From Dendrobates tinctorius (taxonomy: Eukaryota), in the NCBI RefSeq assembly GCF_039654945.1, contig NW_027361831.1, positions 10,416,001-10,480,000 of the forward strand: a stretch of 64,000 bases of DNA, in the 5' to 3' direction. Position 1 is the first letter of the stretch, and each line of letters opens with the position of its first letter. The translations under genes and the position numbers were made by a program. Of this stretch, positions 8,886 through 48,400 are shown piece after piece. The notes beneath the pieces are model-generated. The model saw only the letters and a list, made by a program, of their open reading frames with translations, ran no database searches and was not told where the DNA came from.

Positions 8886-8989
8886 GGGGCCTCAGTGTAT
8901 GCAGGACTCTGCTGTGCTGGTTGTCATGGTGCTGGATGAGGGGAAGTTTCTGTGTGGGGTCAGGAGGGGTTTACAGGGTGGATGTAGCA

Positions 8990-9732
8990 GAGCCGTGTGT
9001 GTACGAGGTGTACGGAGCGGAGCCGCGTGTGTACGAGGTGTACGGAGCAGAGCCGCGTGTGTACGAGGTGTACGGACCGGAGTCGTGTGTGTACGAGGTG
9101 TACGGACCGGAGTCATGTGTACGAGGTGTACGGACCGGAGTCGGGTGTGTACGAGGTGTACAGAGCAGAGCTGTGTGTGTACGAGGTGTACGGAGCGGAG
9201 CCGCATGTGTACGAGGTGTACGGAGCAGAGCCGTGTGTACGAGGTGTACGGAGCGGAGCCGTGTGTGTACTAGGTGTACGGAGCGGAGCCATGTGTGTAC
9301 GAGGTGTACGGACCGGAGTCATGTGTACGAGGTGTACGGACCGGAGTCATGTGTACGAGGTGTACGGACCGGAGTCGGGTGTGTACGAGGTGTACAGAGC
9401 AGAGCTGTGTGTGTACGAGGTGTACAGAGCAGAGCCGCGTGTGTACGAGGTGTACGGAGCAGAGCCGTGTGTACGAGGTGTACGGAGCGGAGCCGTGTGT
9501 GTACGAGGTGTACGGAGCGGAGCCATGTGTGTACGAGGTGTACGGAGCGGAGCTGCGTGTGTACGAGGTGTACGGAGCGGAGCCACGTGTGTACGGAGTG
9601 GAGCGGTGTGCGTATGAGGTGTACGGAGCGGAGCCGTGTGCATACGATGTGTGTGGAGCGGAGACGCATGTGTACAAGGTTTATGGAGCGGAGCCACCTG
9701 TGTACGAGGTGTACGGAGCGTAGCCGTGTGTA
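8990..9732. repeat. CpG-rich minisatellite, about 25 units of 28-30 bp (consensus GTGTGTACGAGGTGTACGGAGCGGAGCCGC)
   Basis: Directly visible tandem array with variant units; it produces the many spurious periodic ORFs in this region. Confidence 0.97.
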
Positions 9733-9867
9733 TATTATTGTGTGTCCCGCATGTCACTTACAATTTTCCCCTTACAGCCCAATTTTTCTGATCTGAGCTC
9801 AGTCCCAGGTGTCCGGCGCTCTCTATATTATAGATTCGGTGCATATTGGTAGAAGTTATAATAATAA

Positions 9868-20854: not shown

Positions 20855-23583
20855 TCAATCATCATTTCTTCTCTCATGTACAGGCTGATCAACACCAGCA
20901 CTGGAGTATTGCCAGTGCACGGCACCTTCAGGACTCATGAAGTAGTCTGTGAAGGTTTCTCACACACGCACCCCCGAGTTAGAAAGCCTTCCATGACCCG
21001 AGGTTTCGACTGCAACTAATTCAGACACCTGTGACTCCTCATCTACCTCTGTTCTGTATTCTTGAAGGTAGTTGTGGAGTACACAGCACGCCTTAATTAC
21101 AGTGTCAACAGTGTCAGTCTCTAACTGGATGGCTGTGTGAAAGATACGCCACTGACTACACATGATCCCAAAGGCGCATTCCACATATCTTCGTGCACGG
21201 CTCAGCCGATAATTAAAAATCCTCCGCCGGTCATCCAGTGTCCTTCGTGGGTATGGGCGCATCAGGTTGGTCTTTAAGGGAAAGGCCTCATCCGATACCA
21301 TCACAAAGGGCACTGGAATTGTGGAACCTGGCAAAGGTCTTGGGGCTGGAAGCGTTCCGCCATGTTGAAGAATTTGCAGTCCGATCTGAGATGATCGCAA
21401 AACCCGAGAGTCCCCAGTACTGCCATAGGCACCAACGTCGATGGCAACAAATTTGTAATGTGCATCAGCCACCGCCATCAGGACCACTGAAAAATACTTC
21501 TTATAATTAAAGAAGCGTGAGCCCGATCGTGGTGGCTTCTGCACTCTCACATGTTTACCATCAACTGCACCAATGCAGTTTGGGAAATTGGCCACAGACT
21601 GAAAGCCAGCTGCGACCTGCAACCAAGTCTCCACGGTCGGCGATGGCATGACGATGGGCTGCAACTTCCGCCAGATGACGGCACATGTGCACCTCACAAT
21701 TTAAGAGATGGTGGATTTACCAACCCTAAATTGGAGGTGCAGTGATGTGTAGCTCTCTCCTGTGGCCAAAAACCTGGAAAAAAAACAAAGAAAAACATGT
21801 TTCATTGGGATCTTAGGGGTTAAATGTGTATCCAAAAAAAATATATATATTACCGCAAGGTGATGAGCAGCCTTTCCTCAGCAGAGATGGGTCTTCTCAT
21901 GACTGTTTCTTGATAATTTAACTCGGGGGAAAGAAGGTCGAGTAGGCGATCAAATGCTGGTATTGTCAGCCGGCAGAAGTTGACAAATTTTTCTGGATAC
22001 CTGAAACAGGAAACAAAATAAAAGGTAATTATTGAACATGATTTGAACAAAAAACCAAAAAATTAACATTATATTTGTTGGTCAATGAGTCCAAAAAACA
22101 TAAGTTGCCCTACTATATCTTACTTTCTTAAATCCTGGTAAAGAAGATTGAAGTGGCCCTTGTCCTCACGCTCTTGAACTATTGGGTGGACCCACATTCT
22201 TTTGGGAGCTGTCCTCCTGTTCCTCACCCTTGTACGACATCGCTCCTATGGGAGAATTTAATGTGAGTCCCAAAAACATCTAAATGATCTGATAAGAACT
22301 ATACAGACATTAAGGCCGGGGTCACACTGGCGAGGAATACGGGAGAGTGAGAGGCGCAAAAAGCACGCATTAGACACGGACAAATGACTCTCTATGGGGT
22401 CACTCGGACCAGCCGTATATTTCTCCTCCGTATCCTCCGCTCCGTGCCACTCGCAGCATGCTGCGATTGTCAGCGTACTACGCCCGTAATACGCCAATGC
22501 AAGTCTATGGGTGCGCAAAAAATACGGATTACACACGGACCACACATGTGACTTGCGAGAAATACGCACCCGGTGTCTTTTAGCAAAGCCGGCAATTCAG
22601 TGCGCTATACAGTAAACTCACACTGACAGGTTTAATAAAGAAACAAAAGAATAGATATATACACATAGAATACATATATATATACACATTCTATGTGTCT
22701 ATATCTATTCTTTGGTTTCTGTTAGAAACCCTGTCATAGGGCTCCATTATATGTCCATTTTGCAAGCCTGTGAGAAAATCTCACCATACGGATGCCATAC
22801 GGATTACATACGGATGCTTACATGCGCAAAATACGCAACCACACCTTGATTACGGATGACATACGGAGCACTATTTAGTGGTGATTCATCCGTATTACGC
22901 ATGTAAAATACTGACCGTATTTTGCGCTGGTTAGTGTGACTCCAGCCTAATGCTAATTTGCAGCATTTTTTATTTTGGCGCATTGTGTTACCAAAAAACC
23001 AATGTAATATATAACTAGTTGCACATGCTTGCATTTTGTAAGCGCACTAACAATCTAGTGGTAAAACACAGTTTATACAATTCTGTCGTCAAAAAATGCA
23101 TGCGCACTATAACGCAAAACAACACATGTACATCGAGGAACAGCAAACAAGTGCGTTCACCAACGCAACCAAAAGATGGCAAGCAGCGTTCAAGGGTGCA
23201 TCATTATCGCCTACTTGATAAAACATTGCGATTTGTACATGCCTTATGATGCATTTTCATTGCGGGCAATGGCGGACTAAGGCATCCTTAACATATTGCC
23301 ACTATGTAACGTATCCAGCAGAAAATTGCCCCTAATGCAATGTGAACCCTGTGAGTGCACCCGAAAGAGAAATGCATATTAAACACAGGAAAAGTCAAGA
23401 ACATGTGCACGCCATGCGCATAGACGCGGACAATGACACGATAGATGCGGTACGTGAAAAAAAAAAATAATGTGAATCCAGCATTACCTGCTCATTAATG
23501 TGGTGGTGCAGCAAAATCAATGTTGTAAGATGCAAAATAAGCGCAATTTCTGGGGTAGAACACAGGCTCTGCAATGGAGGCAT
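20855..23583 (-). pseudogene. Harbinger DDE transposase; exons 23583-23488, 22245-22124, 22000-21854, 21773-20855; two nonsense codons
   Basis: RMWVHPIV, ISAEERLLITLRFLATGESY, FPNCIGAVDGKHV, NYKKYFSVVL, SDEAFPL, FNYRLSRARRYVECAFG. In-frame TAA at 21703-21701 and TGA at 20962-20960; the reading continues ETFTDYFMSPEGAVHWQ to the stop at 20857-20855. Confidence 0.9.
22314..22947. mobile_element. Harbinger-type MITE in transposase intron 1
   Basis: GGCCGGGGTCACACT...AGTGTGACTCCAGCC with TAA on both sides. Confidence 0.85.
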
Positions 23584-25094
23584 CTTGCAATTTGCCAAAA
23601 ACAAGGAGAATAGGGTTTGACCAGGAAATGACTTCATAAAGCCTTTTTTTTTTTTCTCTTCAGTCAACTTTGTTAAAGTAGCAAACGCTGACAAATCGTT
23701 CAAAAAACGCATTAAAAAAAACGCGTGAAAAATGCACAAAAACCGCACCAAAAACGCATACAAACCGCATGGAAAACCGCAAAAAAACCGCGACCGGTTT
23801 CTGGGAGCTGTACCATGCGATTTTTATCAGGAAAAATATGCACAAGAAATGCAACGTGTGCACTTAGCCTAAGAGTAATTTGTCATCTTGAGAAACTATC
23901 TATCTGCTGATAGGTCAATAATTGGTAATTAGTGGTTTAAGCCTGGTTAGTTGGCTTTCTGGAAAAGCGTTAGCTACAGGGAGAAAATTACATTTTCTTC
24001 TCCCTGCTGCCACTTGTTTCCTGTCATAGCATCTGTGCAAGGAGATGTTGCAGTCACCGCTCACTACAAAGTGACAGTACAGTAATAACATCCCTGCACT
24101 TTGATTGTGATGTTTTCCAAGGAGCCCAAGCTGGGCTTCATAGAATGACCAATATGGCAGCAACACATGGCCACCTATCAGCATCTTGCAACTGCGCCAC
24201 AGGGGGCTGATGGGAGCTGGTGAGTGCATGCCACTGTCAGTGATTGAAAAGGGCATTTAAGTACTTAAAACAGCAGCAATCAAGGCAAGCTCTGATCACT
24301 GCTGCTACAGGCAGACGCCGGCTGTGTAGCGCTTCTGACATCTGCCTGGTATGGAGGAGGCTCAGCTCCTGGACCTGCTCCTCACAATCACATCCCTATG
24401 GTGTCATAGCTATGTCAAAATGTGAGATGAAATTTATTTCACTTGTCTGTTCCTAAACTTGGAAATGCAAAAGGAATTCCCTAACATGTGAAACAGTAAT
24501 ATTTTTACACACCACAATGTACTTACATACATTCATCTTACAAAAATACATAAAATTCCAGATACACAAAAACATACAAAGACATGCGCTCACACAGTAC
24601 ACAGACATCAGTACATGAATACAATACATCAACTACCATCAGTACATTGTGCATCAATTGTAATATCAGATCAGACCTACAGCTCTGGCAAAAATTTGTC
24701 TGATTTTTCTCTTTATAGGTATATGTTTGAGCAAAATGTAAACTGTTCTTTTAGTCTACAAACTTCTGACAACATGTCTCCGAATTTCCAAGCAACACAT
24801 TTTTTTTTCTGAAAAGGAGAAATGGTCAAAATTAAAAAAAAAACAAAAAAAAAAACAGTGCTTTCAGACCTCAAATAAAGAAGGGGGCTGGGGAAGGGCA
24901 CAGCCTAGGGGAAGCCCCCCATGACTGCCATGGGTGGGAAGTTTTAGAACTGGTGTTGTGCCAGTTTGAAATAGTTGGCCGGGACGGGGGCCGGGGGAGG
25001 GGTTTAAGGAGGGGGCAGCCTGTATTAGGGAAAAAGTGCGGGAAAAACCGCACTCACCAGCCAGGAGCAGAGGAGAGAAGTCCCACCTGAATCA

Positions 25095-27305
25095 ATGGAC
25101 GACGAGCAGCAACTTTTCACCAGGCTGCAGGATGTGGCCAGGTCCAGGAGGGGAGGATGGCTACAGACCCAACTTTCCTCCCTCCTCAGCGCTGCGGAGC
25201 AGGGATCCAGCCGGCGTGGAAGGAGGACCCGTCCCCCCGAAAGGCTGTCACCGGAGGTGTCAGCCCGCAGCAGGCGGCGGCTGCGGAGCCCCTCCAGGGA
25301 CCCTGCGGGCGGCGCAACAGTTGGGGCTGCATCCCCTCCCTGCGCCCGTCCCGGCAGGAATCCGCCCAGCCGGCCGGTCAGCACGGGCGGCAAGCGTGTG
25401 GGAGCCGGACAGGAACAGCAGGCCGGACCGGAAGTGTCGTCGCGGGCAGGAGCCGAAGAGTCGCGCAGCAGGGAGGAGAGTGAAGGCCGCGGCAGGCCCT
25501 CACAGCGGCGAGGCCGGCGGCGGCCGGCGCCGGGCAACACAGCGGCGAGAGGCAGGATCGAGGGCGCCCCCGGGGATGAGGACCGCTCGGGGGTGTCTGC
25601 CAGCCAGGGCACCAGACGTGGCGCGGCGGGCAGGAGGGGGCATTGCGGCAGCACCCTGCCTGGCCCCACCGTCATCAGAAGGGCCGGAGGTGAGGCGGGC
25701 GGGAGGGTGCCGGTTGCTGCCGCCCTGCCTGCCCCCATTGCAGTCCGTAGCGAGAGAGCTGCGGTCGGGAGGGGGCAGCACGAGGACGCCCTGCCTGGTC
25801 CCAGCAGCACGTGGAGCCCCGACCGATCGGCGGACGGGAGGGGGCTCAGCGGGGACGCCCTGCCAGGTCCTAGCAACGCGTGGAGCCCGGAACGGTCGAC
25901 GGGCGGGAGGCGACTTAGCGTGGTCGCCCTGCCTGGCCCCTATACAGCAGACGGGGCACCAGGCACCTGGGGGCATTTATCCGGGAGTCGCCCGGAGGGT
26001 GCTACGGACCGGCCAGTCGGGCACGGGTCCAGGGACTGTCACAGGTCCCGTTCAAGCGCGAGTTCTCGGGAGCGGCGGGTATCGCATGCTCGGGTCCCCC
26101 CTGGTGACGAGGAGGCCAGGGGCGCGGGCCTGGAGCAGCGGAGCCTGCATCAGGATCATCGAGGACGTCAGGATTCCGGATTTCCAGCTGGCAGGGACAC
26201 AGCACCCGCGCAGCTATGTGAGTATGGCTCCATGTCGTGTTTGTCGCCCGCAGGGGCTGTATTGCAGGATGATGGGGGCAGGCAGGGAGATGGTAGGGAG
26301 CGGATGGGGCGTAGCGGGGCTGAGGTGCCGGGGCTAAGGGACATTTTGGCGAACATGTCGCAAATATTGAGGAGACTGGAGGGGGGGGTAATTGGGGAGG
26401 CAGCTCCGTCCCCAGCGGGGGCATGGTTAGTGGGTCGCGGTTCGGGCACAGAGTCGGGTGGTGACGTGTTACGTGCGGTAGAATGCGATGAAGGAGCTGC
26501 GGCAGGAGTGTCTGTTTCAGTGCAGACAGAGACGGATAAGGGGGATAGGATAAAACTGGACGATAGGGCTAAGGGAGAGGTTTATGTGTGCTTTGAGGGG
26601 CCGCTGGGGGCCCATTTAAAGAAAGAAGTGAAGGAAAAGATTTGGCGGGACGAGTATGTGGAGATATTTTCATTGCTGCCGTTGGAAAAGTTTAACCTGG
26701 ATAAGGGGAAGAAGGACGATAGTAAAAAAGAGGAGGAAGAAAAGAGGAGGTGGCGTCTGATCCCGCAGACTTTTGTGAATTGGATGCAGGCATTCGCTAT
26801 TTTGGCTAGTGTCATAGGGGAGAAGTCTCCGGATAATTGTTCTGGCCTTTTTTGTTATTTAGATGCTATTGGGGAGGCGCATCGTATTTATGGGGGCCAG
26901 GCGTGGCTGCGATACGACGAGCAGTTTAGGCAGAGGAAGGCCGTAAGGCCAGAGATAAAGTGGGATCAAAAGGATATCGGGCTGTGGCTGAAGGTGATGG
27001 CCCCAGTGAGGTATGGGCAGTCCTTTCACGGGAGCGGGAGCAGCGGCAGTCAGCAAGCAGGTCAGGGGAGCAGTGGTCAGGCAACCCAGGGAGGAAGAGA
27101 GAAGTCGGGGGCGTGCTGGCAATTTAATGACGGGCAGTGTAAGTACGGGGCGGGCTGCAAGTTCAAGCACGTGTGCTCCCACTGCAACGGTAGCTCACAC
27201 GGCGCTTCCAAATGTTTTAAGAAAGGGAAAGGAAAGCCAAATGTGGGTGCCGGTCAAGGGGGAGAGCCCGGTGAGGGTTCAAGAGATGGCCCCCTTTCTA
27301 AGTAG
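25095..27305 (+). CDS. Ngaro ORF1, Gag-like, 736 aa, with C-terminal zinc fingers
   Basis: WLRYDEQFRQR motif; CWQFNDGQCKYGAGCKFKHVCSHCNGSSHGASKC. Confidence 0.9.
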   Translation: MDDEQQLFTRLQDVARSRRGGWLQTQLSSLLSAAEQGSSRRGRRTRPPERLSPEVSARSRRRLRSPSRDPAGGATVGAASPPCARPGRNPPSRPVSTGGKRVGAGQEQQAGPEVSSRAGAEESRSREESEGRGRPSQRRGRRRPAPGNTAARGRIEGAPGDEDRSGVSASQGTRRGAAGRRGHCGSTLPGPTVIRRAGGEAGGRVPVAAALPAPIAVRSERAAVGRGQHEDALPGPSSTWSPDRSADGRGLSGDALPGPSNAWSPERSTGGRRLSVVALPGPYTADGAPGTWGHLSGSRPEGATDRPVGHGSRDCHRSRSSASSRERRVSHARVPPGDEEARGAGLEQRSLHQDHRGRQDSGFPAGRDTAPAQLCEYGSMSCLSPAGAVLQDDGGRQGDGRERMGRSGAEVPGLRDILANMSQILRRLEGGVIGEAAPSPAGAWLVGRGSGTESGGDVLRAVECDEGAAAGVSVSVQTETDKGDRIKLDDRAKGEVYVCFEGPLGAHLKKEVKEKIWRDEYVEIFSLLPLEKFNLDKGKKDDSKKEEEEKRRWRLIPQTFVNWMQAFAILASVIGEKSPDNCSGLFCYLDAIGEAHRIYGGQAWLRYDEQFRQRKAVRPEIKWDQKDIGLWLKVMAPVRYGQSFHGSGSSGSQQAGQGSSGQATQGGREKSGACWQFNDGQCKYGAGCKFKHVCSHCNGSSHGASKCFKKGKGKPNVGAGQGGEPGEGSRDGPLSK

Positions 27306-28856
27306 GTACCCGGCTCGGGCAGAGGCCAGCGTGCTTTTGAATGGTTTTGTTGACGGTTTCAGGATTCCATCTCCTGGCCATGTGGTTCCTTTTTCTGTTA
27401 AAAATTTGCGGTCGGCAATAACGCATGCGGAGGTAGTAGATGAGAAGTTAAAAAAGGAAGTGGATTTGGGCAGGATGGCCGGTCCGTTCCCCACGGCTCC
27501 TGTTGCGGGCGTGATTGTTTCCCCGTTGGGGGTTGTGCCTAAGAGGGAGCCGAATAAGTTTCGTTTGATTCAGCATTTGTCTTATCCAAAAGGCTTGTCA
27601 GTTAATGACGGTATCGATAGGGAGTTGTGTTCTGTGGAGTATACCTCTTTTGATACGGCGGTTAAGTGGGTGCGACGTTATGGGTCAGGGGCTTTGTTGG
27701 CAAAGACAGACATTGAGTCCGCTTTTCGGTTACTACCGGTTCATGCAGATAGTATCCCGCTGCTGGGATGTTTTTGGAAGGGGAATTTCTACCTCGATAG
27801 GTGTTTGCCGATGGGTTGCGCAATTTCTTGTTCATTGTTTGAGACGTTTAGCACTTTCCTGGAGTGGTAAGGGATGTTACAGGAATGCAGTCGATCATTC
27901 ATTATCTGGATGATTTTCTTTTTATTGGCCCCCCGGATTCGCCGTTGTGTAGGAACTCGTTGGCAGGCATGGTTTGGGTGGCGGAGCATTTTGGGGTGCC
28001 GCTGGCATCTGAGAAGACGGAAGGCCCTAAGGCCGTTATAAGTTTTTTGGGCATAGTTGTCGATTCGGAAAGGATGGAGTGTCGGTTACCAGAGGTCAAG
28101 TTGGCATTGTTGAAACAGGAGGTGGAGAGGATTTCGAAGTTGCGCAAAGTGACCCTCAAGGAATTACAATCCCTATTGGGGAGATTGAACTTTGCCTGCA
28201 GGATCATGCCTATGGGTCGAATTTTTTCTCGTCGTTTGGCTAGCGCGACGGCAGGGGTGAAGGCTCCGCACCATTACGTTCGCTTGACGAAGGAGCATAG
28301 GGACAATTTGATGGTTTGGCAGCGGTTTTTGCGGAATTACAATGGGCAGTCGCTGATGCAGGAGGAGACATTGAGCAATTTTGATTTTGAAATATTTACG
28401 GATGCAGCAGGCAGCTCTGGTTACGGCGCCTACTGTAAGGGAAGGTGGAGTGTGGGGCGGTGGCCTCAGGCGTGGAAGTTGTTGGGCCTTACCAAAAACT
28501 TGGCACTATTGGAGCTGTTTCCTATCGTGGTAGCTGTTTTGGTGTGGGGTCCCATGTTCGAAAATAGGAGAGTGCGCTTTCATTGCGACAACGCGAGTGT
28601 TGTAGCGGTCATTAACAGTTTGTCGGCCTCCTCTCCCCCCGTAGTTAGATTGGTTAGGGTTTTGGTTCTTCGATGTCTGGATTTGAACGCAGGGATTTCT
28701 GCAGTGCATGTGCCCGGGGTTACGAATTCAATAGCAGACTCTTTGTCTCGTTTTCAGTGGGGGCGTTTTCGAGAATTGGCGCCAGGAGCGGATGCCACGG
28801 GCGTGGAATGCCCTTCCTTTCTGTGGAAGGTGATTACGGAAGAGCAGGAAGACTGA
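27241..28856 (+). pseudogene. Ngaro ORF2, reverse transcriptase/RNase H, with one frameshift at about 27865
   Basis: SPLGVVPK, FRLIQHLS, KTDIESAFRLLPV, LPMGC, then in another frame HYLDDFL, FTDAAG, LELFPI, HCDN, ADSLSR. Confidence 0.9.
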
Positions 28857-29719
28857 TTCGGGAATCCTTATCGCAGCAGACATGGTCGGCCTACGATTCT
28901 TCATGGCGAGTATGGCAGAGTTGGTTGGCAGAGTGGGGTGGGGTCGAAAGTGATGAGGATAGGATGTTGGCGGTATTGTTTTTAATTGGGAAGGCAGCTG
29001 ACAGCGGTTGGTCTGCTGCTAAGGTAAACAAGTTTGTAGCGGGTTTAGCTTTCGGTTTCAAGTTGCAAGGGGTGGGGGATGTTACGAAGAGCTTCTTAGT
29101 GAGTCAGGCGTTAAAAGGGTTTCGTAGGGGTAACAAAGCCGGCGACAAACGAAGGCCTATTTCGTTTAGTACGTTGGAAGGCTTAGGCAGAGTCCTTGGG
29201 GGTATTTGCACGTCAGTTTTTGAGTTGGCCCTGTTTCGGCTGGCTTTTTCTTTGGCCTTTTTTGGGGCAATGCGCATTGGCGAGGTGGTGTCAGGCAGCA
29301 GGGTTTCGGCGGGAGGGGTGTTGGCAGAAGATGTGGAATTTTGGGCAGGGGGCATTGTTTTTTGGATTCGGCGTTCAAAAACTGATCAACAGGGTAGGGG
29401 CAGACGGGTAGTTTTGGGGCGAGTTGAAGGGGCATTAATGTGCCCACGTGGCTGTTTGGAAACGTATTGGGGCGTATGGGCGGGTAGGACGGGTCCTCTC
29501 TTGTGCCATGCGGACGGCACCTATTTGTCTCGGTTCCAGTTCATTGCGGTTTTGAAGAAGGGATTGGTAGAGTTGGGCCTTCCCCAGGACATGTACGGGT
29601 CTCATTCATTTAGGATCGGTGCTGCGACCGAAGCGGACAGCCTTGGGTTGGGGGCTGATGCGATTAGGAGAATTGGCAGGTGGCAGTCGGATCGGTATTT
29701 ACTGTATGTTCGGCGTTAG
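28673..29719 (+). CDS. Ngaro ORF3, tyrosine recombinase (true start uncertain)
   Basis: AFFGAMRIGE, RRSKTDQ, HSFRIGAAT, GRWQSDRYLLYVR carry the catalytic R, H-x-x-R, W and Y residues. Confidence 0.93.
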   Translation: MSGFERRDFCSACARGYEFNSRLFVSFSVGAFSRIGARSGCHGRGMPFLSVEGDYGRAGRLIRESLSQQTWSAYDSSWRVWQSWLAEWGGVESDEDRMLAVLFLIGKAADSGWSAAKVNKFVAGLAFGFKLQGVGDVTKSFLVSQALKGFRRGNKAGDKRRPISFSTLEGLGRVLGGICTSVFELALFRLAFSLAFFGAMRIGEVVSGSRVSAGGVLAEDVEFWAGGIVFWIRRSKTDQQGRGRRVVLGRVEGALMCPRGCLETYWGVWAGRTGPLLCHADGTYLSRFQFIAVLKKGLVELGLPQDMYGSHSFRIGAATEADSLGLGADAIRRIGRWQSDRYLLYVRR

Positions 29720-29728
29720 CTGTGTGGT

Positions 29729-30373
29729 TTGCATGTCCTGGGATGTGTTTTTTCTATATTCTGTTGTGTTTTTTCAGGTGGCGGCCCCTTTCTTGCCTGG
29801 ATATTCGGACACTCTTACGTTTATTGGGGTGCGCTACGAGCCGACGCGAGGCCAGATGGTAGGCAATTGGGCTTTGGGAGGGAGCAGGTGCTGGTCCGTT
29901 GGTTGGGTTTCCGAGGCATGGTATGGAGCAGGGTGCTCCTGGAGTTAACCAAGTCCGCTCGCTTGGATAGAACCCCCGACATTATTGTTTTCCATGTGGG
30001 GGGCAATGATTTAGGGGTCAGGCCGGTGAGAGAATTAATTAGGGACATACGTTCCGATTTTTTGAGGTTGTGGACATCGTTCCCGAACGTGGTGACGGTA
30101 TGGTCGGATGTAGTACCCAGACAGAGGTGGAGGCAAGCGAGATCGTTGAAAGGGATTAACAGGGCAAGGGTAAAATTGAATCGTGCGGTGTCGGCATTTG
30201 TGTCCAGGAATGGGGGCATTAGTGTTCGTCACTTTGAATTGGAGACAGGTGCCGGTAATTTTTGGTTGGCCGATGGGGTTCATTTAAATTCTATTGGTAT
30301 TGATTTATGGGCACTGTCAATACAGGAGGGGATCGAGAGGGCCTTGGTGGTTTTGGGGCACTCACGAGCCTGA
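29729..30373 (+). CDS. Ngaro ORF4, SGNH/GDSL hydrolase (probably entered via a splice acceptor at 29777/29778)
   Basis: FGHSY (block I), HVGGNDLG (block III), DGVHLN (block V). Confidence 0.88.
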   Translation: MHVLGCVFSIFCCVFSGGGPFLAWIFGHSYVYWGALRADARPDGRQLGFGREQVLVRWLGFRGMVWSRVLLELTKSARLDRTPDIIVFHVGGNDLGVRPVRELIRDIRSDFLRLWTSFPNVVTVWSDVVPRQRWRQARSLKGINRARVKLNRAVSAFVSRNGGISVRHFELETGAGNFWLADGVHLNSIGIDLWALSIQEGIERALVVLGHSRA

Positions 30374-33015
30374 GGTGGTCAGGGCTGTTCGTGGTTGGCG
30401 GGGGTGGGGTTCTTGGAGTTGACGGTGATTGGTCGGGGAAGGATTTGGAAGTAACATTCCCGACAGTTTAAAATGGTATGGGGGATCTGGCTTTTGGGTA
30501 TGGGCTCTGGACGGGGTTTTACCTCGGGAGCTATGGTGGTTGGTCTCCCAGAAGGGGAGTTACGGTGCCCTCGAGCTGGGCTGGACGGCTGGGGGTAACA
30601 TGGTGGAAATAAGTTTATAGCCAGATCTTTCTAGCTCCAAGAACCCTCCCCTCATAATTTTGAATTATTTAATGTTTATTGTTAATGTTTGTTAATAAAA
30701 TTGGCCGCTGTGGCCAAAATTATCCAAAGAATTTAAATTGTACCTTGTCTTATTCTCAGGAGAAGGGAAAGAGGGGGATGATAGGAGGCGGCGAGGTATC
30801 GAGGAGAAGGTAAAACTGAAGTCGCCATATGCGGTCAAGAAGGGGGCTGGGGAAGGGCACAGCCTAGGGGAAGCCCCCCATGACTGCCATGGGTGGGAAG
30901 TTTTAGAACTGGTGTTGTGCCAGTTTGAAATGGTTGGCCGGGACGGGGGCCGGGGGAGGGGTTTAAGGAGGGGGCAGCCTGTATTAGGGAAAAAGTGCGG
31001 GAAAAACCGCACTCACCAGCCAGGAGCAGAGGAGAGAAGTCCCACCCACCCTCCCTGTTTTGGGAGCATGTTGGGGGCTGCTAGGGGATGTACGTTTTTA
31101 AAAAAAAAAAAAAAAAAAGTGATCGGTATATAGATTCTTGTCAGGGTCTATATGAGGCGTTGTTGTTGCTGTTGTCACAGTGGCTGTGGGGCGGGGGGTG
31201 GGGTTCTTGGAGTTGACGGTGATTGGTCGGGGAAGGATTCGGAAGTAACATTCCCGACAGTTTAAAATGGTATGGAGGATCTGGCTTTTGGGTATGGGCT
31301 CTGGACGGGGTTTTACCTCGGGAGCTATGGTGGTTGGTCTCCCAGAAGGGGAGTTACGGTGCCCTCGAGCTGGGCTGGACGGCTGGGGGTAACATGGTGG
31401 AAATAAGTTTATAGCCAGATCTTTCTAGCTCCAAGAACCCTCCCCTCATAATTTTGAATTATTTAATGTTTATTGTTAATGTTTGTTAATAAAATTGGCC
31501 GCTGTGGCCAAAATTATCCAAAGAATTTAAATTGTACCTTGTCTTATTCTCAGGAGACGGGAAAGAGGGGGATGATAGGAGGCGGCGAGGTATCGAGGAG
31601 AAGGTAAAACTGAAGTCGCCATATGCGGTCATGCAAAGAAAACAAGTTCATAATCATTCAGAAACAAAAATACTAATGTTTTTACTCGGGATGAATTCAG
31701 AAATCAATATTTTGTGGACTAACCATGATTTTTAAAAACAGCTTTCATGGGTCACACTGCTTCTTGCACAAAAATTTAATCAGCTCTTCTTTGTTTGATG
31801 GCTTGTGACTACCCTTCATCCTCTTGATTACATTCCAGAGGTTTTCAATGGGGTTCAGGTCTGGAGAATGGGCTGCCCATGACAGGGTTTTGATGTGGTG
31901 GTCTCTTAATTTTTTCCAGAGCAAAAATATACATTTGTATTGCATAAACCTAAAACTCCCAGTATGTCCTTAACAATGGTAATGATATACTGGGAGCTGT
32001 TGTTACCAATCATTATCAACATGGGTTTACGGGTGACCATTCCTGTCAGACTAATCTGATAAGCTTTTATGAAGAGGTCAGTTCCGGACTGGACCAAGGG
32101 AATGCAGTGGACGTGGTGTACATGGACTTTTCAAAAGCTTTTGATACTGTGCTACACAAAAGATTGATACATAAAATGAGAACAATGGGGATAGGGGAAA
32201 ATATGTGTAAGTGGGTTAAGAGCTGGCTCAGGGATAGGAAACAAAGGGTGGTTATTAATGGAGCACACTCGGACTCGGTCACGGTTAGCAGTGGGGTACC
32301 ACAGGGGTCAGTATTGGGCCCGCTTCTATTTAACATGTTTATTAATGACCTTGTAGGGGGCATGGAGAGTAGAATTTCAATATTTGCAGATGACACTAAA
32401 CTCTGCAGGGTAATCAATACAGAGGAGGACAATTTTATATTACAGGAGGATTTATGTAAACTAGAAGCTTGGGCTGATAAATGGCAAATGAGCGTTAATG
32501 GGGATAAATGTAAGGTCATGCACTTGGGTAGTGCGACCACACTTAGAATACTGTGTACAGTTCTGGTCTCCGGTGTATAAGAAAGACATAGCTGAACTGG
32601 AGCGGGTGCAGAGAAGAGCGACCAAAGTTATTAGGGAACTGGGGGGTCTGCAATACCAAGACAGGTTATTACACTTGGGGTTATTTAGTTTGGAAAATCG
32701 AAGGCTTAGGGGTGATCTTATTACAATGTATAAATATATGTATAAATATATGCGGGTGCAGTACAAAGACATTTCTACTAAAGATCTTTTTACTCTTAGA
32801 CCTGTGACGGGGACAAGAGGGCATCCTCTACGTCTGGAGGAAAGAAGGTGTAAACATAATCACAGACACGGATTCTTTACTGTAAGAGCAGTGAGACTAT
32901 GGAACTCTCTGCCATATGATGTTGTAATGAGTGATTCCCTACTAAAACTTAAAAAGGGCCTGGATGCCTTTCTTGAAAAGTATAATATTACAGGGTATAT
33001 ACACTAGTTTCCTTA

Positions 33016-37100: not shown

Positions 37101-40100
37101 GATAAAGAGTATGGTGATTTCAGACCATAGTCTGGAGAGTGTGTAGCTGTGTGACTCTGTCCAAAGAGGAACAGACATCTTGTGGAGGCTCCTGACATTT
37201 CTAATCAGAGATGAGAACTTTCATAGGGTACTGAGGGAGTGGTGGGAGGACTTCAGATTAACAAATGGGGAACACGAACAAGACCCAATGTTATTTTGGC
37301 AGACGGCCAAGGCGGTTCTGAGGGGTCATCTGCTGGGATACACAGCTATGCTCAAAAGAAAGATAAATGAGAAATACTCTAAGACTAGCGAGCTTTTGAG
37401 GAAGGCGTATACTGCGTTTCTGGCTGACCACTCTCCATTAGAGAAAAGGAATTGGATAGAAGCTAAAAGTAACTTTGATTCATGGGCAGATAAGAAAGAG
37501 CAAATATATAGGTCACAGCAGGAAGTGGCGCTCCATAGATTTGGGAACAAGGTGGGAAAGATGCTAGCCAATTTGGTAAGGGGAAGGATGCAAGCAAATT
37601 TAATTTTGAGTCTGAAAAAGAAAGATGGGTGTTTAACTTCTGATCCTAGGGAAATAAATAGGATTCTGGTGGACTATTATAGAGATCTTTACGGGGTGTC
37701 ACAGGATGGTATCGGGGGGGAGGAGCGGTTACAGAAAATGCCCCACCTTACAGAATAGGAGGTAGAGGTTCTGTATGCTGAGATACATGTGGATGAGGTA
37801 AAATCGTCAATTAAAGGTCTTAGTAATGGCAAGGCACCGGGCCCAGATGGATTCATGAGTGAGTTCTATACGGTCCTAAAGGATCAGATCTCCTCAGCAT
37901 TGACAGATATCTTTAATATGTGGATGGTGGGAGGGGGCATCTCCAATCATTGTTAAAACTGCTTATATAAAGCTGCTACCAAAAGGGAATAAGAATCTGG
38001 GAGACCCTGCCAGCTACTGATCAATCTCGCTTATCAACCAAGACTTGAAATTGGTATCCAAAATTCTGGCAGATCACCTGGCCATGGCCTTGCGTAGAGT
38101 GATAACGTCGCACCAGTTAGGTTTCATAAAAGGTCAAACGGTATCCAGTATCCAATATTAGAAAAGCCATGTTGATCATGGATGAGGTCAAGTGCGAGAA
38201 GGAGAATGTGGTGGGGTACCCAGCCTTTGTTACTTTGGATGCTGAGAAAGCATTTGATAATGTGAGTTGGTCGTGGCTGGAATTGGTTCTAGATAGGATG
38301 GGGTTGAAGGGTAGGTTGTGCAGTTATATACAAATGCTTTACTCGAATCCTCACGCGAGGGTCTATACCCCGGGATTTTTATCAGACGTGTTCCCCTTGA
38401 GAAAGGGTAGGCGTCAGGGCTGCCCGTTATCGCCTCTACTTTTTAATACAGCCATTGAACCTCTGTCAAGAGTTCTTAATGATATGGACAGTCTTGAAGG
38501 AATCAAAATAGGAGATAGAATGCTGCAGTCGGCATTGTTTGCAGATGATATTGTATTATTTATGCGTAACCCATACAGGGATTTAGGCCACACTTTATCC
38601 CTTGTGGAAAAATTTGGGGCGTTCTTGAGTTTCAAGCTTAATAAGAACAAATGTGGGTTATTGTTCCTAAAGAGGGGGGATAGACCACCAGGTCAATATC
38701 GACAAACTGAGATTTTTGGGATCCCGATTGCGAAGGGCTTGATTAAATATTCGATATATGCCTTGAACTATCATCCACTTATCTCAAAAATTGAAGCACA
38801 GTTAAAGGGATGGAGTGAACTGCCATTGCCGTTGCTAGCAAGAAGTCATTTGATAAAGATGATCAGCTTCCCTAGGCTGTTGTATACCTTGCAGACGATC
38901 CCCTTACTACTTAAACATAGGGACATTTCCAGGATTAATAGAGCCTATGCTAACTTTCTCTGGGAGGGGAAAGAAATCTAGAATAAAACTGAGTACTCTT
39001 ATGTTCTCTGTAAAAGAGGGAGGGATTAGGTTTCCTAATGTTAGGGGGTATAACCTTTCTTGTTTGGCAAGACACATGGTTGACTGGCTGCGTGGGTCAA
39101 GTAGACACTCGGATCTGGGACTGGAATGTGAGTTTTTCAAGCCCTGGGATCTGGTTTCGGTGCTACACTCTCCTTTATCCTGTTTGAGCACAACTATTCG
39201 AAATTTGATAGTATGTAGGGACACAATAGTGACGTGGAAGATGATACAAAAGAAAGTGGGTTTACCATGGAAGGTTTCTAAGTATCTTAATCCTTGGGCA
39301 CTCCCGAACTTTCGTTTTGGTTTGGGAGACAAAAGTTTATTCAGAGTGTGGCAGGAGAAAGGTGTCAAGAGAATGAAAGATTTAATGCATGAAAGTGAAA
39401 GAAGGTGGATGAGTGAGGCAAAGGTGGTGAAGTTCAACCTTAGCAAGTTTCAAACTCTGCAGTATGCGCAAATAAAAAACTCCATTATGCGAGATTTGTT
39501 GAATGTATCCAAGTAGTTGCATGAAAATGAGTTTGATGGATTGTGATCTCTCCAGTCTGAATGTGTCAAGGATCTATGGTATCATGAGAGAGTGGCTGAT
39601 CCCAGCAGGGAATCAGACTTGTGCTAAAGGGTGGGTGAAACAGATGGGGGAAGTGGATATCATGGATAAGATTCTGCAGGGCTGGTGTTTACTGAGAAAG
39701 AACATCACTAGTGAGAGTTGGAGGGACACCCAGTTCAGGATTATGCACAGGGCTATCTACGGGTTTAACCTGCCAGTGCTCTCAGTGTGTGTGGGCAAAG
39801 TTCAGAAATGTCCAAAGTGTGGGACAGATCGCACTGATGTGTTTCATGGCCTGTGGGGGTGTGAGGTCTTTCAAAAGTTCTGAAAGTCGGTCTGTAATTT
39901 CAACCGGGAGATAGGGGAGACAGATTGGGAACTAGACCCGATGTTGTGGGTTTTTCATTTTGTGTGAGAAGGAGTCAAAAGGGGGGATACGATATCACTC
40001 TTGCATGACATAGCAGTCCTAGATAAAAAGTCTATTTTAAGACAATGGATTACAGCGGAGGCCTCGACTGTGAGTGAGTTATTAAACAACATGAAATAGT

Positions 40101-41826: not shown

Positions 41827-42486
41827 GAGAGATTTTAAGGAGAAGATATATCACTTTGGACCGAACTGGGGGACCGGTGGGGGGGGTGAATGATGGAAAG
41901 TAGAGGTGTACACCTTTTTTTTTTTTTTTTTCGTCCTTTACTTGATCCACCACTTCGGTTCTCCCCTGCTGTATGGTCTCTATGGATCCCGAGATCCTAC
42001 GTACTTTGGGAGGTGGAGGAGCTTTGGCGTTCATGGGGGTCCTGGCTTCTCTTCCGAGTCTCTCTATTGGGTGCTGGGAGGACCATACCGGTAGGAAGGA
42101 GAGGGAGACTGGGTTCGGAGGCACCGAATAAGGTGTATGGGAAAGGAGGGAGGAGGTATTGTATGTTGATAAGAATAGTGACCAAGAAGGCCTTGCCTTG
42201 ATATGGTGGGGAGCAGAAGAATGGGGGATAGGCTATGGGTAATTACTAATCAGTGAGCTGAGAGGGATTTGCGGAGCCAGGAGCATCACAGAAAAAATGG
42301 AAGTGAAGAAACGACTGACTGTAAAGGGGGGGATAGTTGAGGGGTTGTTAGTTGATAATAGACTTAGGATGAGCAGTTGGGTTCAGGGAAAGCAACGTTA
42401 TGGACACACCGAATGCTTGGAGGGATCACAATACCATACATATGAAAGACCACATGTCGACGTGAAATACTTGAGAAATTGGGACA

Positions 42487-45400
42487 ATGGTTAAAATAGT
42501 GACATGGAATGTGAAAGGACTGAAGTCACCACATAAGCGCATGATGATATTGAGACAACTCAAAAGACTGAAAGTCGATATAGCATTACTACAGGAGACA
42601 CACCTACCCCAGGGGGATTTCTTCCGTATGCAGAAACTATGGGTGGGAAAAGTAGTTGGGTCAGGCTCCCTGGGACGAAAGGCAGGGGTGATGATTCTAA
42701 TTAACAAAAATTTTAATCACACGATAGTATCTCAGAACAATGATGAAGAAGGGAGGTATATTCACATCAAGCTTACCAGTCCACAGGGAGAGTTTGATAT
42801 ATATAACATATACGCCCCTAACAATGAACAAACTTCATTTTTTAACTTTATCACTACTGAACTGGGAAAAGACACAGAACTCAAACGGATAGTCGGAGGG
42901 GACTTTAATGCAGTGGTTTCAAGGGGGGAAGATAAGAGATATAGTAGAGATGACGGCAGACCGATTAGGGAGGTAAAAGGATTAATGGTCAAGCTTTTGG
43001 AGGACACAAATTTAAAAGATAGTTGGAGAATGCTTCACCCAAATGACCGGGAATACTCTCATTACTCGCATCCACACGAAGCGTGGTCTAGGATTGATTA
43101 CATTTTGGTAGACCAATTTCTGATGCATAGGGTAAGGGATGTGGATATTGGAGATATGGTGATATCGGATCACAGCCCGGTGCTTCTAGAAATTACTGAT
43201 ACAACACTGAGGGGGACGGACTACTTGTGGAGGTTTCCGTCGTTTCTACTTAGAGACAAGGAATTTGCCAAAACACTGAACGAATGGTGGGAAGACTATA
43301 GCAGAAACAATAGTGAACATGAGGCGGATATAATGTTGTTCTGGGAAGCAGCAAAAACAGTATTAAGGGGAAGATTGATGGGACATGTAGCTAAACTTAG
43401 GAAACATACCCACAAACAATATCAGGCTGCAAGTGAGATCCTCAGAGAGAAGTATACATGGTATCTAGAAAACAAAACACAAGAGGCAAAGGAGGAGTGG
43501 AAAGCAGCAAGGCAGGAATTTCAATCCTGGGCGGGGAAAAGGGAGGATCTGGTACGATCACAGCAGGAAGTTGATTTGCACAAATTTGGCAATAAGGCAG
43601 GGAGACTGTTGGCCAATCTGGCAAAAGGGCGACGACCAATGACTTTGATAACTAACATGACTAGACCGGACGGGAGCAAATCCACAAGTCCACAAGAGAT
43701 TACTGAGATTCTGGGGGATTATTATGCAAAATTATATAGTAAGGGGGAAGAGATGGTTGGCAGGGAAAATGACTGGTTGAAAAGCATAAAACTCACACAA
43801 ATCAATGCGGAAGAGCTGTCTAGATTGAACGCAGAAATAACATTAGAAGAAGTACAGATGGTAATAGGGGATCTGAACGTACACAAGGCACCAGGACCTG
43901 ACGGGTTTAATGGGGAATTTTATAAAGTAATGAAAGAGCAGGTGGCACCGATCCTGACTAGAATGTATAACAAAATAATGGGAGGAGGGGGAATTTCGGG
44001 ACACCTTAACACTGCGTACATAAAATTGATTCCCAAGGGGGACAGAAATCTAGATAACCCAGCAAACTATAGGCCAATTTCATTGCTAAACCAAGATCTC
44101 AAAATCTTGGCCAAATTGATGGCCAATAGATTGGCGGAGATCATAGAATCATAGAATCATAGAATCATAGAATCGTAGAGTTGGAAGGGACCTCCTGGGC
44201 CATCTGGTCCAACCCCCTGCTCAAAGCAGGATTCGCTAAATAATCCCAGTCAGATGTCTGTCTAGCCTCTGTTTGAAGACTTCCATTGAAGGAGAACTCA
44301 CCACTTCTCGTGGCAGCCTGTTCCACTCATTGATCACTCTAACTGTCAAAAAGTTTTTTCTAATATCTAATCTGTGTCTCCTCCCATTCAGTTTCATCCC
44401 ATTGCTTCTAGTCTTTCCTTGTGCAAATGAGAATAAAGTTGATCCTTCTACAATGTGACAGCCCTTTAGATATTTGTAGACAGCTATTAAGTCTCCTCTC
44501 AGTCTTCTCTTTTGCAAACTAAACATTCCCAAATCCTGCAACCTTTCCTCATAAGACAGGGTTTGCAGACCGGTCACCATTCTGGTCGCTCTTTTCTGAA
44601 CTTGCTCCAGTTTGTTGATGTCTTTTTTAAAATGTGGTGCCCAAAACTGGACACAATATTCCAGATGAGGTCTGACCAAAAGAGGAGTAGAGGGAAATAA
44701 TGACTTCACGTGATCTAGACTGTATGCTTCTGTTAATACATCCTAGAATTGCATTTGCCTTTTTTGCTGCTGCATCACACTGTTGACTCATATTCAGTCT
44801 GTGATCTATTAGTATACCCAAGTCTTTTTCACATGTGCTGTCACTTAGCCCTATTCCTCCCATTCTATATATGCTTTTTCCATTTTTATTGCCCAGATGT
44901 AGTACTTTGCATTTCTCCCTGTTAAAAACCATTCTGTTAGTTGCTGCCCACTTCTCCAGTTTATTTAAATCTTTTTGAATCCTCTCTCTCTCTTCTCTAG
45001 TATTAGCTATCCCTCCTAGCTTTGTGTCATCAGCAAATTTAATCAGTTTACCCTCAATTCCTTCATCTAAATCGTTGATAAAGATGTTGAACAATACAGG
45101 GCCCAGGACAGAGCCCTGTGGTACCCCACTTGAGACATTCTTCCAACTGGATGTGCAGCCATTTACGACCACTCTTTGGGTCCGATCACTAAGCCAGTTA
45201 TGAATCCACCTAACAGTTGCCTTGTCCATTCCATACTTAATCATTTTTTCAATAAGGATTGTATGAGAGACTTTGTCAAATGCTTTGCTGAAGTCAAGAT
45301 ATACTATATCTACAGCATTTCCTTGATCTACCCAATCAGTGATACCGTCATAGAAGGAAATTAAGTTAGTCTGACATGACTTATTAGTTACAAACCCATG

Positions 45401-48400
45401 CTGACTCTGTTTAATCACTTCATTCTTATCCAGGTATTGACATACATGTTGTTTAATAATTTGTTCAAAGATCTTTCCTGGTATAGAAGTCAGACTCACC
45501 GGCCTATAGTTACCTGGGTCCACCTTCTTCCCCTTTTTGAAGATAGGAACAACATTTGCTCTTCTCCAGTCTTCTGGCACTTCTCCTGTTCTCCAAGAAT
45601 TTTCAAAGATTATAGAGAGGGGTTCAAAAATTTCTTCTGCTATCTCCTTCAGTACTCTGGGGTGTAATTCATCTGGACCTGGAGACTTGAATTCATTTAG
45701 GCTAGCTAAGTGTTTCCTCACTATCTTTCTGTTTATAGATATCCTGGATTCTTCTATTCCCTTAATAGGACAGTGAATAACAGTTGATGTTACATTTCCT
45801 TTCTGAGAGAAAACAGATGCAAAATAGGAATTTAAAAGTTCAGCCTTCTCAACATCCTGTCTTACCATTTCATCATTTTCATCCTGTAAAAATCCTATAG
45901 CATCTTTGACTTTTCTTTTACTTTTGACATATCCCCAAAATCCTTTATTATTGCTTTTGACATCTCTTGCAAGCCTCAATTTATTTTCAGCTTTAGCTAA
46001 TCTGATTTGTGCCCTGCAGGTTCTGCAGACAGCATTATATTCTTCTTTAGATATGCCTCCCTCTTTCCATTTTATAAACATTTTTTTCTTCCTTTTTAGC
46101 ATGTGCTTAAGTTCTGTGTTCATCCATCCTGGTTTCCTTAAATGCTTCCTATTCTTCCCTCTTTTCGGAATTGTTAACAACTGTGCTTTGAGAATTTCAT
46201 TTTTCAAGATTTCCCATCCTTCCTGGAAATTTTTGTCTTTAAGGATATCCAGCCATTGGATCCCTCCAATTCTCTTTCTGAATCCCTTAAAATCTGCCTT
46301 TCTGAAATCTAACCTTGATGTCTGAGTCTTCACAGGTCTTCCGCCTCTAGTTATCCAAAATTCTAAAATAGCATGGTCGCTACCTCCTAGGGTCCCAGCC
46401 ACTTTTTCCTCCTCAACCATTTCCTCCCTGTTTATAAGGATTAGATCCAAGGTAGCAGTTCCCCTTGTTTTCTCCCTTACCTTTTGGAAGATAAAGTTGT
46501 CAGCAAGAGAGGATAAGAATTTCCTTGACCTGTTAGTTTTGCCTGAGAGAGATTCCCAACAAATGTCTGGATAGTTGAAATCTCCCATGACAACTATGTC
46601 ATATTTTTTGGAGAACTTGGCCATTTGATGCATAAAGAGTTCATCCATAGCTTCAGCTTGCACAGGCGGCCTGTAGTAAATGCCTACAATGGTGTCCTTT
46701 CCATTGTTCTGTCCTTGTATTCTTACCCAAACAGTTTCCACAGAACTCCCAGTCTCTGAAGCTTCAATCTCTGTGCAGATATACGCGTTTCTAACATACA
46801 ATGCGACACCCCCTCCTCGTTTATCAAGTCTGTTTCTTGCAAATAAGTTGTATCCTTCTAGTCTTGTATTCCAATCATGTGTATTGTCCCACCAAGTTTC
46901 AGTGATTCCAATGACATCATATTTCTTTTCCTGTGTTAGTAGTTCCAATTCTCCTTGTTTGTTGCCCATGCTTTGTGCATTAGTATAGAAACATTTTAGT
47001 TTGTGATTGGTTTCTCTTTCTCCAATATTTTTATTAATTAGATTCTTTCGTCTTTGTTCTTCCTTTCCACTTCTAATAGCAGAGTTCTCAATAGCATTTG
47101 TCCAGTGTATGGCTTTTTCTGGTCTTTTGCTTCCCTTCCCATGTTGTTCTAGTTTAAAGCTCTCCTTACAAGTGTAGCAAGGCGACTTCCAAATACATGC
47201 TTACCAGTCTTCGTAAGGTGCACCCCATCTCTAGCAAGTAGTCCATCGTATAAGTAGTTCACTCCGTGATCCAGAAATCCAAATCGTTGCTGACGGCACC
47301 ATCGACGTAGCCAGTTGTTCACCTGCAGAATCTTATTCCACCTCCTTGTTCCATGTCCATCCACTGGGAGGATGGAAGAGATACTACCAAACTTAATATC
47401 ACCGGCACAATCAGGGTTCGTTAAGGGGAGGGCAGCGGTGACGAATGTGCGGAGGGCTATGCTGGTAATGGATGCCATTAGACATAGGGATCTTCAAAAG
47501 GAGGAGTGTCCAGCCATGGTCACACTTGATGCCGAGAAAGCGTTTGATAGTGTGGGGTGGTCATGGCTGGAGACGGTACTAGACAATATGGGGATACGGG
47601 GAGCCTTTCGTACATTCATAGGGGTATTGTATGCAAATCCTCAGGCGAGGGTGGCGACGCCCGGGTTCCTGTCGAGATCTTTCCCATTGAGCAAAGGGAC
47701 TAGACAGGGATGTCCACTGTCACCCCTCCTGTTTAATCTGGCCATTGAGCCTTTGTCTAGACTATTAAATGAAGGAGATTGTTTTGAAGGTATTAGGGTC
47801 GGGAAGGAACAATTGCGTTCAGCCCTATTTGCGGATGATATCATACTATTTATGAACAATCCTCAGAGAGATCTCCCAAAAGTGACACAACAGATAGAGG
47901 AGTTTGGGGGATTATCAGGCTTTAAATTGAACAGAGCAAAGTGTGAAATTTTGTTTCTGTGTGAGCAAAAGATGAAACTGATGGTTGCCGAGGGAACAAG
48001 AGATGGCATCTCTGGGATACCGATAGCATGGTCTCACCTTAAATATTTGGGAATACAGATGGGACGTACAACAGCGTCAATATACGAATTGAACTACAAA
48101 CCTTTGATACAAAAAATAGAACGGGAACTAAAGATGTGGGAGGGGCTGCCGCTATCATTACTAGGTAGAAATCATCTTTTGAAGATGATGAGTTTTCCAA
48201 AATTACTCTACCCAATGCAGACAATCCCTATGTTATTGAAACATACAGACATAAATAGACTGAATAAAGCATTCTCGACATTCTTGTGGAGGGGGAAAAG
48301 GCCGAGAATCAAAACGGAAAAATTAATGCAATCTTTGGAAAAAGGAGGCATTAAAATGCCAAATATTAGAGGGTATAACTTGGCATGCCTGATGAGGCAC

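Follow-up and report, generated by a model that had tools for sequence, protein, structure and literature searches.

One splice donor in the Gag-like gene of a frog Ngaro retrotransposon is predicted to provide a recombinase and an SGNH esterase with the same first exon

A stretch of 64,000 nucleotides (nt) of the Dendrobates tinctorius genome (contig NW_027361831.1, positions 10,416,001 to 10,480,000; hereafter the window) carries on its forward strand a complete Ngaro-type retrotransposon (24878-31632), consisting of repeat A1, four open reading frames (ORFs), and the repeats B1, A2 and B2. We propose that the transcript of this element is, in all likelihood, alternatively spliced from a single donor within ORF1, with Gag made without splicing, the recombinase reached via 28758 and the esterase via 29778. 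The unspliced RNA would encode Gag and also serve as the replication template, the splice to 28758 would join exon 1 to the recombinase in a protein of 694 amino acids (aa), and the splice to 29778 would join the same exon to the SGNH esterase in a protein of 572 aa; in some families the esterase splice would pass through a short cassette beginning at the recombinase acceptor. Translation of the reverse transcriptase (RT) probably begins at a conserved ATG of its own. A preliminary description of this DNA had proposed two proteins with a common N-terminus, Gag and the esterase. Both have a place in the present scheme, which is wider, as the donor would also serve the recombinase and three-exon forms exist.

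The splice sites and their conservation

ORF1 (25095..27305, + strand, 736 aa) is Gag-like and contains a helix pair, an RRxRPPxRLSP motif, an Arg/Gly/Ser-rich region, the Gag core and a CCCH finger. Its GTGAGT donor (26217|26218; feature 26215..26223, +) begins at 26218, past 374 codons and one base, and is therefore in phase 1, leaving 25095..26217 (+) as the protein-coding portion of exon 1, the shared exon. The spacer between the tyrosine recombinase (YR) and hydrolase frames (29720..29777, +), which would form the 3' end of the intron, is a U-rich tract with a CAG in which indels of 1-2 nt are tolerated among sister copies. The acceptor reads TTTTTTCAG and has its last base at 29777. The cut falls one base inside an ORF4 codon, likewise in phase 1, 20 nt upstream of the Trp codon of the WIFGHSY motif, and the site is the T-richest (14/20 T) of the 234 YAG sites of the element. 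Past the acceptor the ORF4 frame stays open for 197 codons until the TGA at 30373 (hydrolase exon, 29778..30373, +), so that splicing 26217 to 29778 predicts a product of 374 + 1 + 197 = 572 aa; frame arithmetic thus agrees with the two sites, the shared phase and the open product that the preliminary description had reported. It had also cautioned that phases match by chance in one case out of three. The donor of a single copy is not beyond chance: the probability of at least one GTRAGT per 1 kb is ~0.3 in shuffled sequences. As a donor in one copy is expected by chance in about three cases out of ten, conservation is needed to decide, and it is the conservation among families, together with frog gene models, that lifts the match above this level.

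The window was compared with 40 further copies from the same genome, found by diverged hydrolase queries; cut at 88%, the sample forms 15 families whose representatives are 45-87% identical at the nucleotide level. A pyrimidine-rich YAG in phase 1 lies exactly 20 nt upstream of the hydrolase Trp codon in 37 of the 41 copies and 13 of the 15 families, and is kept in families down to 41% hydrolase identity. The copies that lack it at this position are L073 and L096, which carry deletions, L108, where the site is at -11 and phase 1 is kept, and the decayed L111. A match to the branch-point consensus yTnAy is present in 12/15 family representatives. In the distant L100-L109 group, the TAA that ends the YR frame doubles as the centre of this match (TTAAC or CTAAC), which lies ~20 nt ahead of the hydrolase acceptor.

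On the donor side, a phase-1 GTGAGT lies in ORF1 119-470 nt upstream of the Gag core in all 11 families compared over the Gag region (in L107 and L110 the upstream open frame served to assign the phase), and the 11 family representatives hold 12 GTGAGT hexamers where 4.5 are expected. As GTGAGT is constant across families while the codon spanning the junction specifies Gly, Cys or Ser, the conservation points to selection on the RNA. Judged from these alignments, the splice plan of the element is real and conserved; for the window's own family, we infer from this plan that splicing takes place.

The second acceptor, 28757|28758 (28737..28758, +), would serve the recombinase. It is a pyrimidine-rich CAG at 28755-28757, within the RNase H motif ADSLSRFQW and in phase 1 to the YR frame, and joining the exon 1 donor to 28758 predicts the 694-aa fusion of exon 1 and recombinase. 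A phase-1 YAG 92 or 86 nt upstream of the YR core was found in 33 of 37 copies; in two more it is displaced by small indels and two are without it. In five copies from two families the YR leader contains no ATG. A candidate internal phase-1 donor (28829|28830; 28827..28835, +) would turn the start of this exon into a cassette of 72 nt; it is missing from some families, and a phase-1 GTAAGG donor, present in four families of the D. tinctorius genome, fits protein models ending in ...TWxAY|G. As for the RT, among the matches listed phase-1 YAGs lie 89-95 nt upstream of the RT start in close families, and their position and phase are lost in distant ones; a conserved acceptor for RT was not found among these matches.

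Fusion proteins in other genomes

In many frogs, annotated gene models encode the predicted products. When longer proteins related to the hydrolase were sought, 23 were obtained, 16 of which consist of a low-complexity, ORF1-like N-terminus followed by the hydrolase, and one of which has a YR piece between the two. A further 141 proteins came from an unfiltered HMMER search, 32 of them composed of the ORF1 N-terminal helix and the hydrolase alone; named records with helix and hydrolase come from at least 13 frog species (two of Bufo, two of Xenopus, and one each of Dendropsophus, Hyla, Engystomops, Eleutherodactylus, Rhinoderma, Hyperolius, Phyllobates, Rana and Spea). The helix was recognized in 130 of 391 fetched proteins, running into the hydrolase in 73, into YR in 34 and into Gag in 20. 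Fusions of the ORF1 start to RT are absent from this set, for which no search aimed at them was made. The residue of the junction codon is Gly or Asp in 52 of the 69 hydrolase fusions scored (background 15%), as a phase-1 junction reading G|GT or G|AT predicts. The conservation of donor, acceptor and phase, which the preliminary description had named as the check on ORF1-hydrolase splicing, is thus seen across the families of this genome, and the fusion itself recurs in gene models of other frogs.

Proteins with identical N-termini that diverge exactly at the junction were found both for Gag and YR (P0028/P0112, P0033/P0108, P0040/P0106, P0054/P0124) and for YR and hydrolase (P0094/P0018, P0100/P0078, P0111/P0270, P0116/P0272, P0128/P0342). 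In Bufo bufo a single gene, LOC121003196, is annotated with the YR fusion as isoform X1 (XP_040290783.1) and the hydrolase fusion as isoform X3 (XP_040290798.1). Three-exon forms appear in Bufo and Xenopus models, in which exon 1 is followed by ~27 residues from the YR acceptor and then by the hydrolase. Among the matches listed (at least 120), many of the longer YR relatives are frog fusions that begin with the ORF1 start, and long low-complexity N-termini also precede YR in a caecilian, in lizards and in cyprinid fish. The fish YR fusions read ...QILS followed by EI..., and fish models containing Gag read ...LILS or QILA followed by GAD...; judged from the proteins alone, the two sets fit the same phase-1 switch.

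Six fusions (P0007, P0151, P0230, P0286, P0343, P0347) have an acidic and less repetitive N-terminal region (MSAALEELL...) and may represent a separate family or else a copy that was domesticated. When the Phyllobates member, P0007, was compared with the D. tinctorius genome in search of a domesticated host copy, the 112 scored matches covered the hydrolase part only. Eight unnamed proteins of 949-3112 aa (P0212, P0222, P0240, P0253, P0263, P0287, P0335, P0349), most of them with several tandem hydrolase copies, are possibly host genes derived from the Ngaro hydrolase.

Evidence against splicing and rival explanations

Several observations weigh against the proposal that the element is alternatively spliced. 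No read or contig of D. tinctorius crosses the junctions (four runs, examined as contigs and for the listed joints only); the two runs presumed to be RNA are uninformative, covering 10 and 3 of 30 bins and matching none of the listed joints. In the window's family and its nearest relative, intron-less genomic copies number 0, as opposed to 241 matches that continue into the intron, and no match runs into either downstream exon. At the donor of the window's family the base at -1, which is G in most other families, is T in 29 of 29 matched copies, which bears out the earlier concern over the weak exonic side of this site, and no yTnAy branch point lies within 55 nt of the hydrolase acceptor. The test of the YR acceptor against synonymous codons is weak by itself, with P 0.03-0.08 for six close families and 0.10-0.63 for distant copies. 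Since the families share ancestry, the counts given above measure conservation and are not 11 independent trials. The fusions are known as gene models and not from the reads behind them; six of the 23 longer hydrolase relatives are Ranitomeya imitator models that fuse YR, RT or Gypsy pieces to the hydrolase, indicating that predictors can use the hydrolase acceptor loosely, and the proteins compared include no direct two-exon Gag/hydrolase pair, the three pairs of this kind running via the cassette.

The absence of intron-less copies among the 241 matches suggests that spliced RNAs do not return to the genome as new copies, conceivably because an RNA ending at the AATAAA of B1 (30694) would lack A2 and B2. 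Candidates for such copies were rejected. L032 (G000:C86:16749133-16752729), in which nearly the whole of ORF1 is joined in frame to the hydrolase and RT and YR are lost, arose by deletion between two similar short stretches and has no GT-AG junction; the deletion in L096 ends off the GT-AG sites; and three C6 copies as well as L097 and L098, which have long open frames, were found not to be intron-less. The deletions of L096 and L073 take away the end of YR together with the acceptor tract, and in L096 the YR frame continues into the hydrolase.

The T at the donor and the lack of a consensus branch point, which is shared by the sister family L078, are what one would expect if splicing were real in relatives and decayed or rare in the window's family, the 572-aa protein being seldom made. 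We regard this as unlikely, though it is the least improbable of the rival explanations, as the family is young and abundant, its hydrolase is intact with all catalytic residues, GTGAGT is kept and the U tract is the strongest. That the fusions are artefacts of gene prediction spread from one annotation to another, and the sites by-products of coding constraint, is quite improbable. Mixed chimeric models do occur and the YR acceptor does lie within a conserved RNase H motif, yet the hydrolase acceptor is in a non-coding spacer, RefSeq models (XP_) and annotations by submitters (KAE8630892.1, KAE8586426.1) share the same junctions, and single loci carry several isoforms. The RefSeq pipeline is not known to report multiple isoforms without support from alignments.

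Two further explanations would dispense with splicing for the hydrolase, and we give very little credence to either. In the window the YR stop codon TAG (29717-29719) directly precedes the open hydrolase frame, and the spacer is in frame in 39 of 44 copies of the family, as would suit readthrough of the recombinase stop to a YR-hydrolase fusion. Readthrough is largely refuted by indels that shift the frame in the remaining 5/44 sister copies, by the offset between YR and hydrolase, which is 0, 1 or 2 across families with TAG, TGA or TAA as the stop, and by in-frame stops in the leader of six families. A hydrolase standing alone, with a promoter and start codon of its own, would agree with the 39 of the 141 proteins from the unfiltered search that have <100 residues ahead of the hydrolase domain. 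However, an in-frame ATG in the open ORF4 leader is found in just 3 of the 15 family representatives, the other 12 having none, and the earliest one in the window (29918) lies past the catalytic Ser, so that an ATG of its own for ORF4, named in the preliminary description as a refutation, finds little support; a conserved YAG at a fixed position would also be left without an explanation. Splicing from the ORF1 donor thus stays the explanation we prefer.

The shared exon, the esterase and the element

The N-terminus of ORF1 consists of a conserved helix pair (~32 aa), followed by the RRxRPPxRLSP motif and a basic low-complexity region, and exon 1 as a whole is 17% Arg with a net charge of +24. 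By analogy with ZfL2-1 ORF1p (see below), the helix pair and Arg-rich tail may act as a handle for self-association and RNA binding, through which the Gag particle takes up the recombinase together with an esterase that binds membranes, a plausible suggestion that we put forward tentatively. More speculative still is the idea that Ngaro elements from fish to frogs use exon 1 as a common hub, with a helix pair and basic tail that would load both enzymes into the particle and tie it to membranes, the spliced RNAs ending at the B1 poly(A) signal without A2 and B2 and not being copied back. A resemblance of ORF1 residues 1-70 to parathyroid hormone (ESM Atlas, 0.91), the sole kind of match obtained, was set aside as that of a helix with a basic tail. 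Exon 1 also holds five diverged repeats of 66-69 nt (25616-25940) that encode an 'ALPGP' unit.

ORF4 is predicted from its residues and modelled fold to be an SGNH hydrolase carrying all catalytic residues. The PF13472 match (E 1e-6) is barely below the curated cut-off, and the AlphaFold model, with a predicted local distance difference test score of 93, is a soluble alpha/beta domain with matches to the GDSL/SGNH fold. S12, G43, G75-N76-D77, D165 and H168 are invariant among 16 aligned hydrolase sequences, and we take the Ser to belong to SGNH block I, the Gly to block II, the Asn to block III and the Asp-x-x-His to block V. In the fold search the model matches 4c1b (E 3.9e-7), and a sequence search of PDB is weak (4c1b, E 0.085); as bacterial GDSL enzymes outrank 4c1b in the fold search, the match does not establish common descent with the ZfL2-1 esterase.

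In ZfL2-1, ORF1p is described as carrying a dimerising coiled coil of five heptads and an Arg-rich motif ahead of an SGNH esterase with affinity for acidic lipids and liposomes (PMC3905857). The predicted Ngaro fusion resembles this protein and its esterase-bearing counterparts in other CR1/L2 long interspersed nuclear elements (LINEs) in the order helical region, Arg-rich linker, SGNH esterase; unlike the spliced Ngaro product, ZfL2-1 ORF1p is a single unspliced ORF of a non-LTR (long terminal repeat) element. In plant Ty1/Copia elements, the shGAG transcript separates by splicing the RNA that makes protein from the genomic RNA (PMC5580714). There splicing yields Gag alone, whereas in Ngaro the unspliced RNA would give Gag and the 374-aa exon would be grafted onto two enzymes.

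An env-like strategy had been suggested for the hydrolase in the preliminary description. The env genes of retroviruses and gypsy elements are expressed from a spliced subgenomic RNA that shares a short leader at most. In Ngaro a downstream ORF would likewise be reached via splicing, and here the likeness ends: the shared part is not a short leader, and in place of a signal peptide and membrane anchor of the env type we find 374 shared residues that are basic and hydrophilic. The hydrolase gene would be env-like in expression only.

No account of the splicing of Ngaro ORFs was found in the literature searched, which did not reach the key Goodwin/Poulter papers. The abstract of Goodwin and Poulter 2004 reportedly notes that some YR elements contain spliceosomal introns, which makes an earlier remark on Ngaro splicing possible. 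Those papers aside, the literature searched, as far as its text was accessible, contains no description of how third and fourth overlapping ORFs of YR retrotransposons are expressed, and splicing of Ngaro ORFs is not described in the accessible portions of PMC6681497, PMC7192593, PMC9341512, PMC4157794, PMC3905857, PMC13343379, PMC3266345, PMC4495291, PMC3783388, PMC8547959 and PMC5580714. In the portion available of a study of the Xenopus Ngaro elements DIRS-53_XT and DIRS-54_XT (bioRxiv 10.1101/2021.08.05.455354), the ORFs are treated as separate overlapping frames and the hydrolase as having no proven function, and 'splic' and 'intron' have 0 occurrences. If true, our proposal explains how the esterase and the integration enzyme are expressed and which form the actual proteins take: the real Ngaro recombinase and esterase would be fusions of 450-750 aa and not the bare ORFs cloned for biochemistry or genome engineering. 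Many frog genes labelled collagen-like, IF-2-like or SRRM-like would then be spliced Ngaro products, and convergence with the layout of LINE esterase ORF1 proteins (helix, Arg-rich linker, SGNH) would be suggested.

By its repeats and frames the element is an ordinary, already known amphibian Ngaro retrotransposon of the DIRS order, like DIRS-53_XT and DIRS-54_XT, which have gag-like, RT/RNase H, YR and SGNH hydrolase ORFs and the repeat layout A1...B1 A2 B2. All its repeats are on the + strand: A1 (24878..25087) and A2 (30837..31046) are identical split direct repeats of 210 nt, and B1 (30400..30836; AATAAA at 30694) and B2 (31194..31632; AATAAA at 31488) are ~438 nt long and 99% identical over the 300 nt compared. 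The ORFs follow the Ngaro order of Gag-like ORF1, RT/RNase H and YR, and five frames gave no Pfam match to a DAM-like methyltransferase domain, as is expected of Ngaro. Pfam matches are weak for zf-CCCH (E 0.011) and RVT_1 (E 0.021) and absent for YR; some of the homologues of YR, which reach 54% identity, bear PF00589. The RT/RNase H ORF (27010..28856, +) overlaps the end of ORF1, has its conserved ATG at 27287 and stops at 28856, directly past RNase H; in the window copy a small deletion, as compared with sister copies, disrupts it near 27860-27870 and leaves two frames. The YR frame spans 28658..29719 (+), with its core from ~28850. The family comprises 907 candidates, the best 40 of which are 99-100% identical, and is evidently young and large. 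Near-identical copies cluster (L093-L095 at G000:C6 ~525-753 kb, others at G000:C227 485-647 kb, G000:C68 and C76), probably inside segmental duplications or arrays.

Elsewhere the window contains a + strand LINE (42475-49651; endonuclease 42475-44154, RT 47294-49651) interrupted by a second, - strand LINE (44627-47200), further RT fragments (31954-32580, 38130-38981), an exon with a C2H2 zinc-finger array (57981-59612, -), a fragment of a Harbinger-type DDE transposase (20960-21700, -) and a minisatellite with a unit of 28-30 nt (8937-9764).

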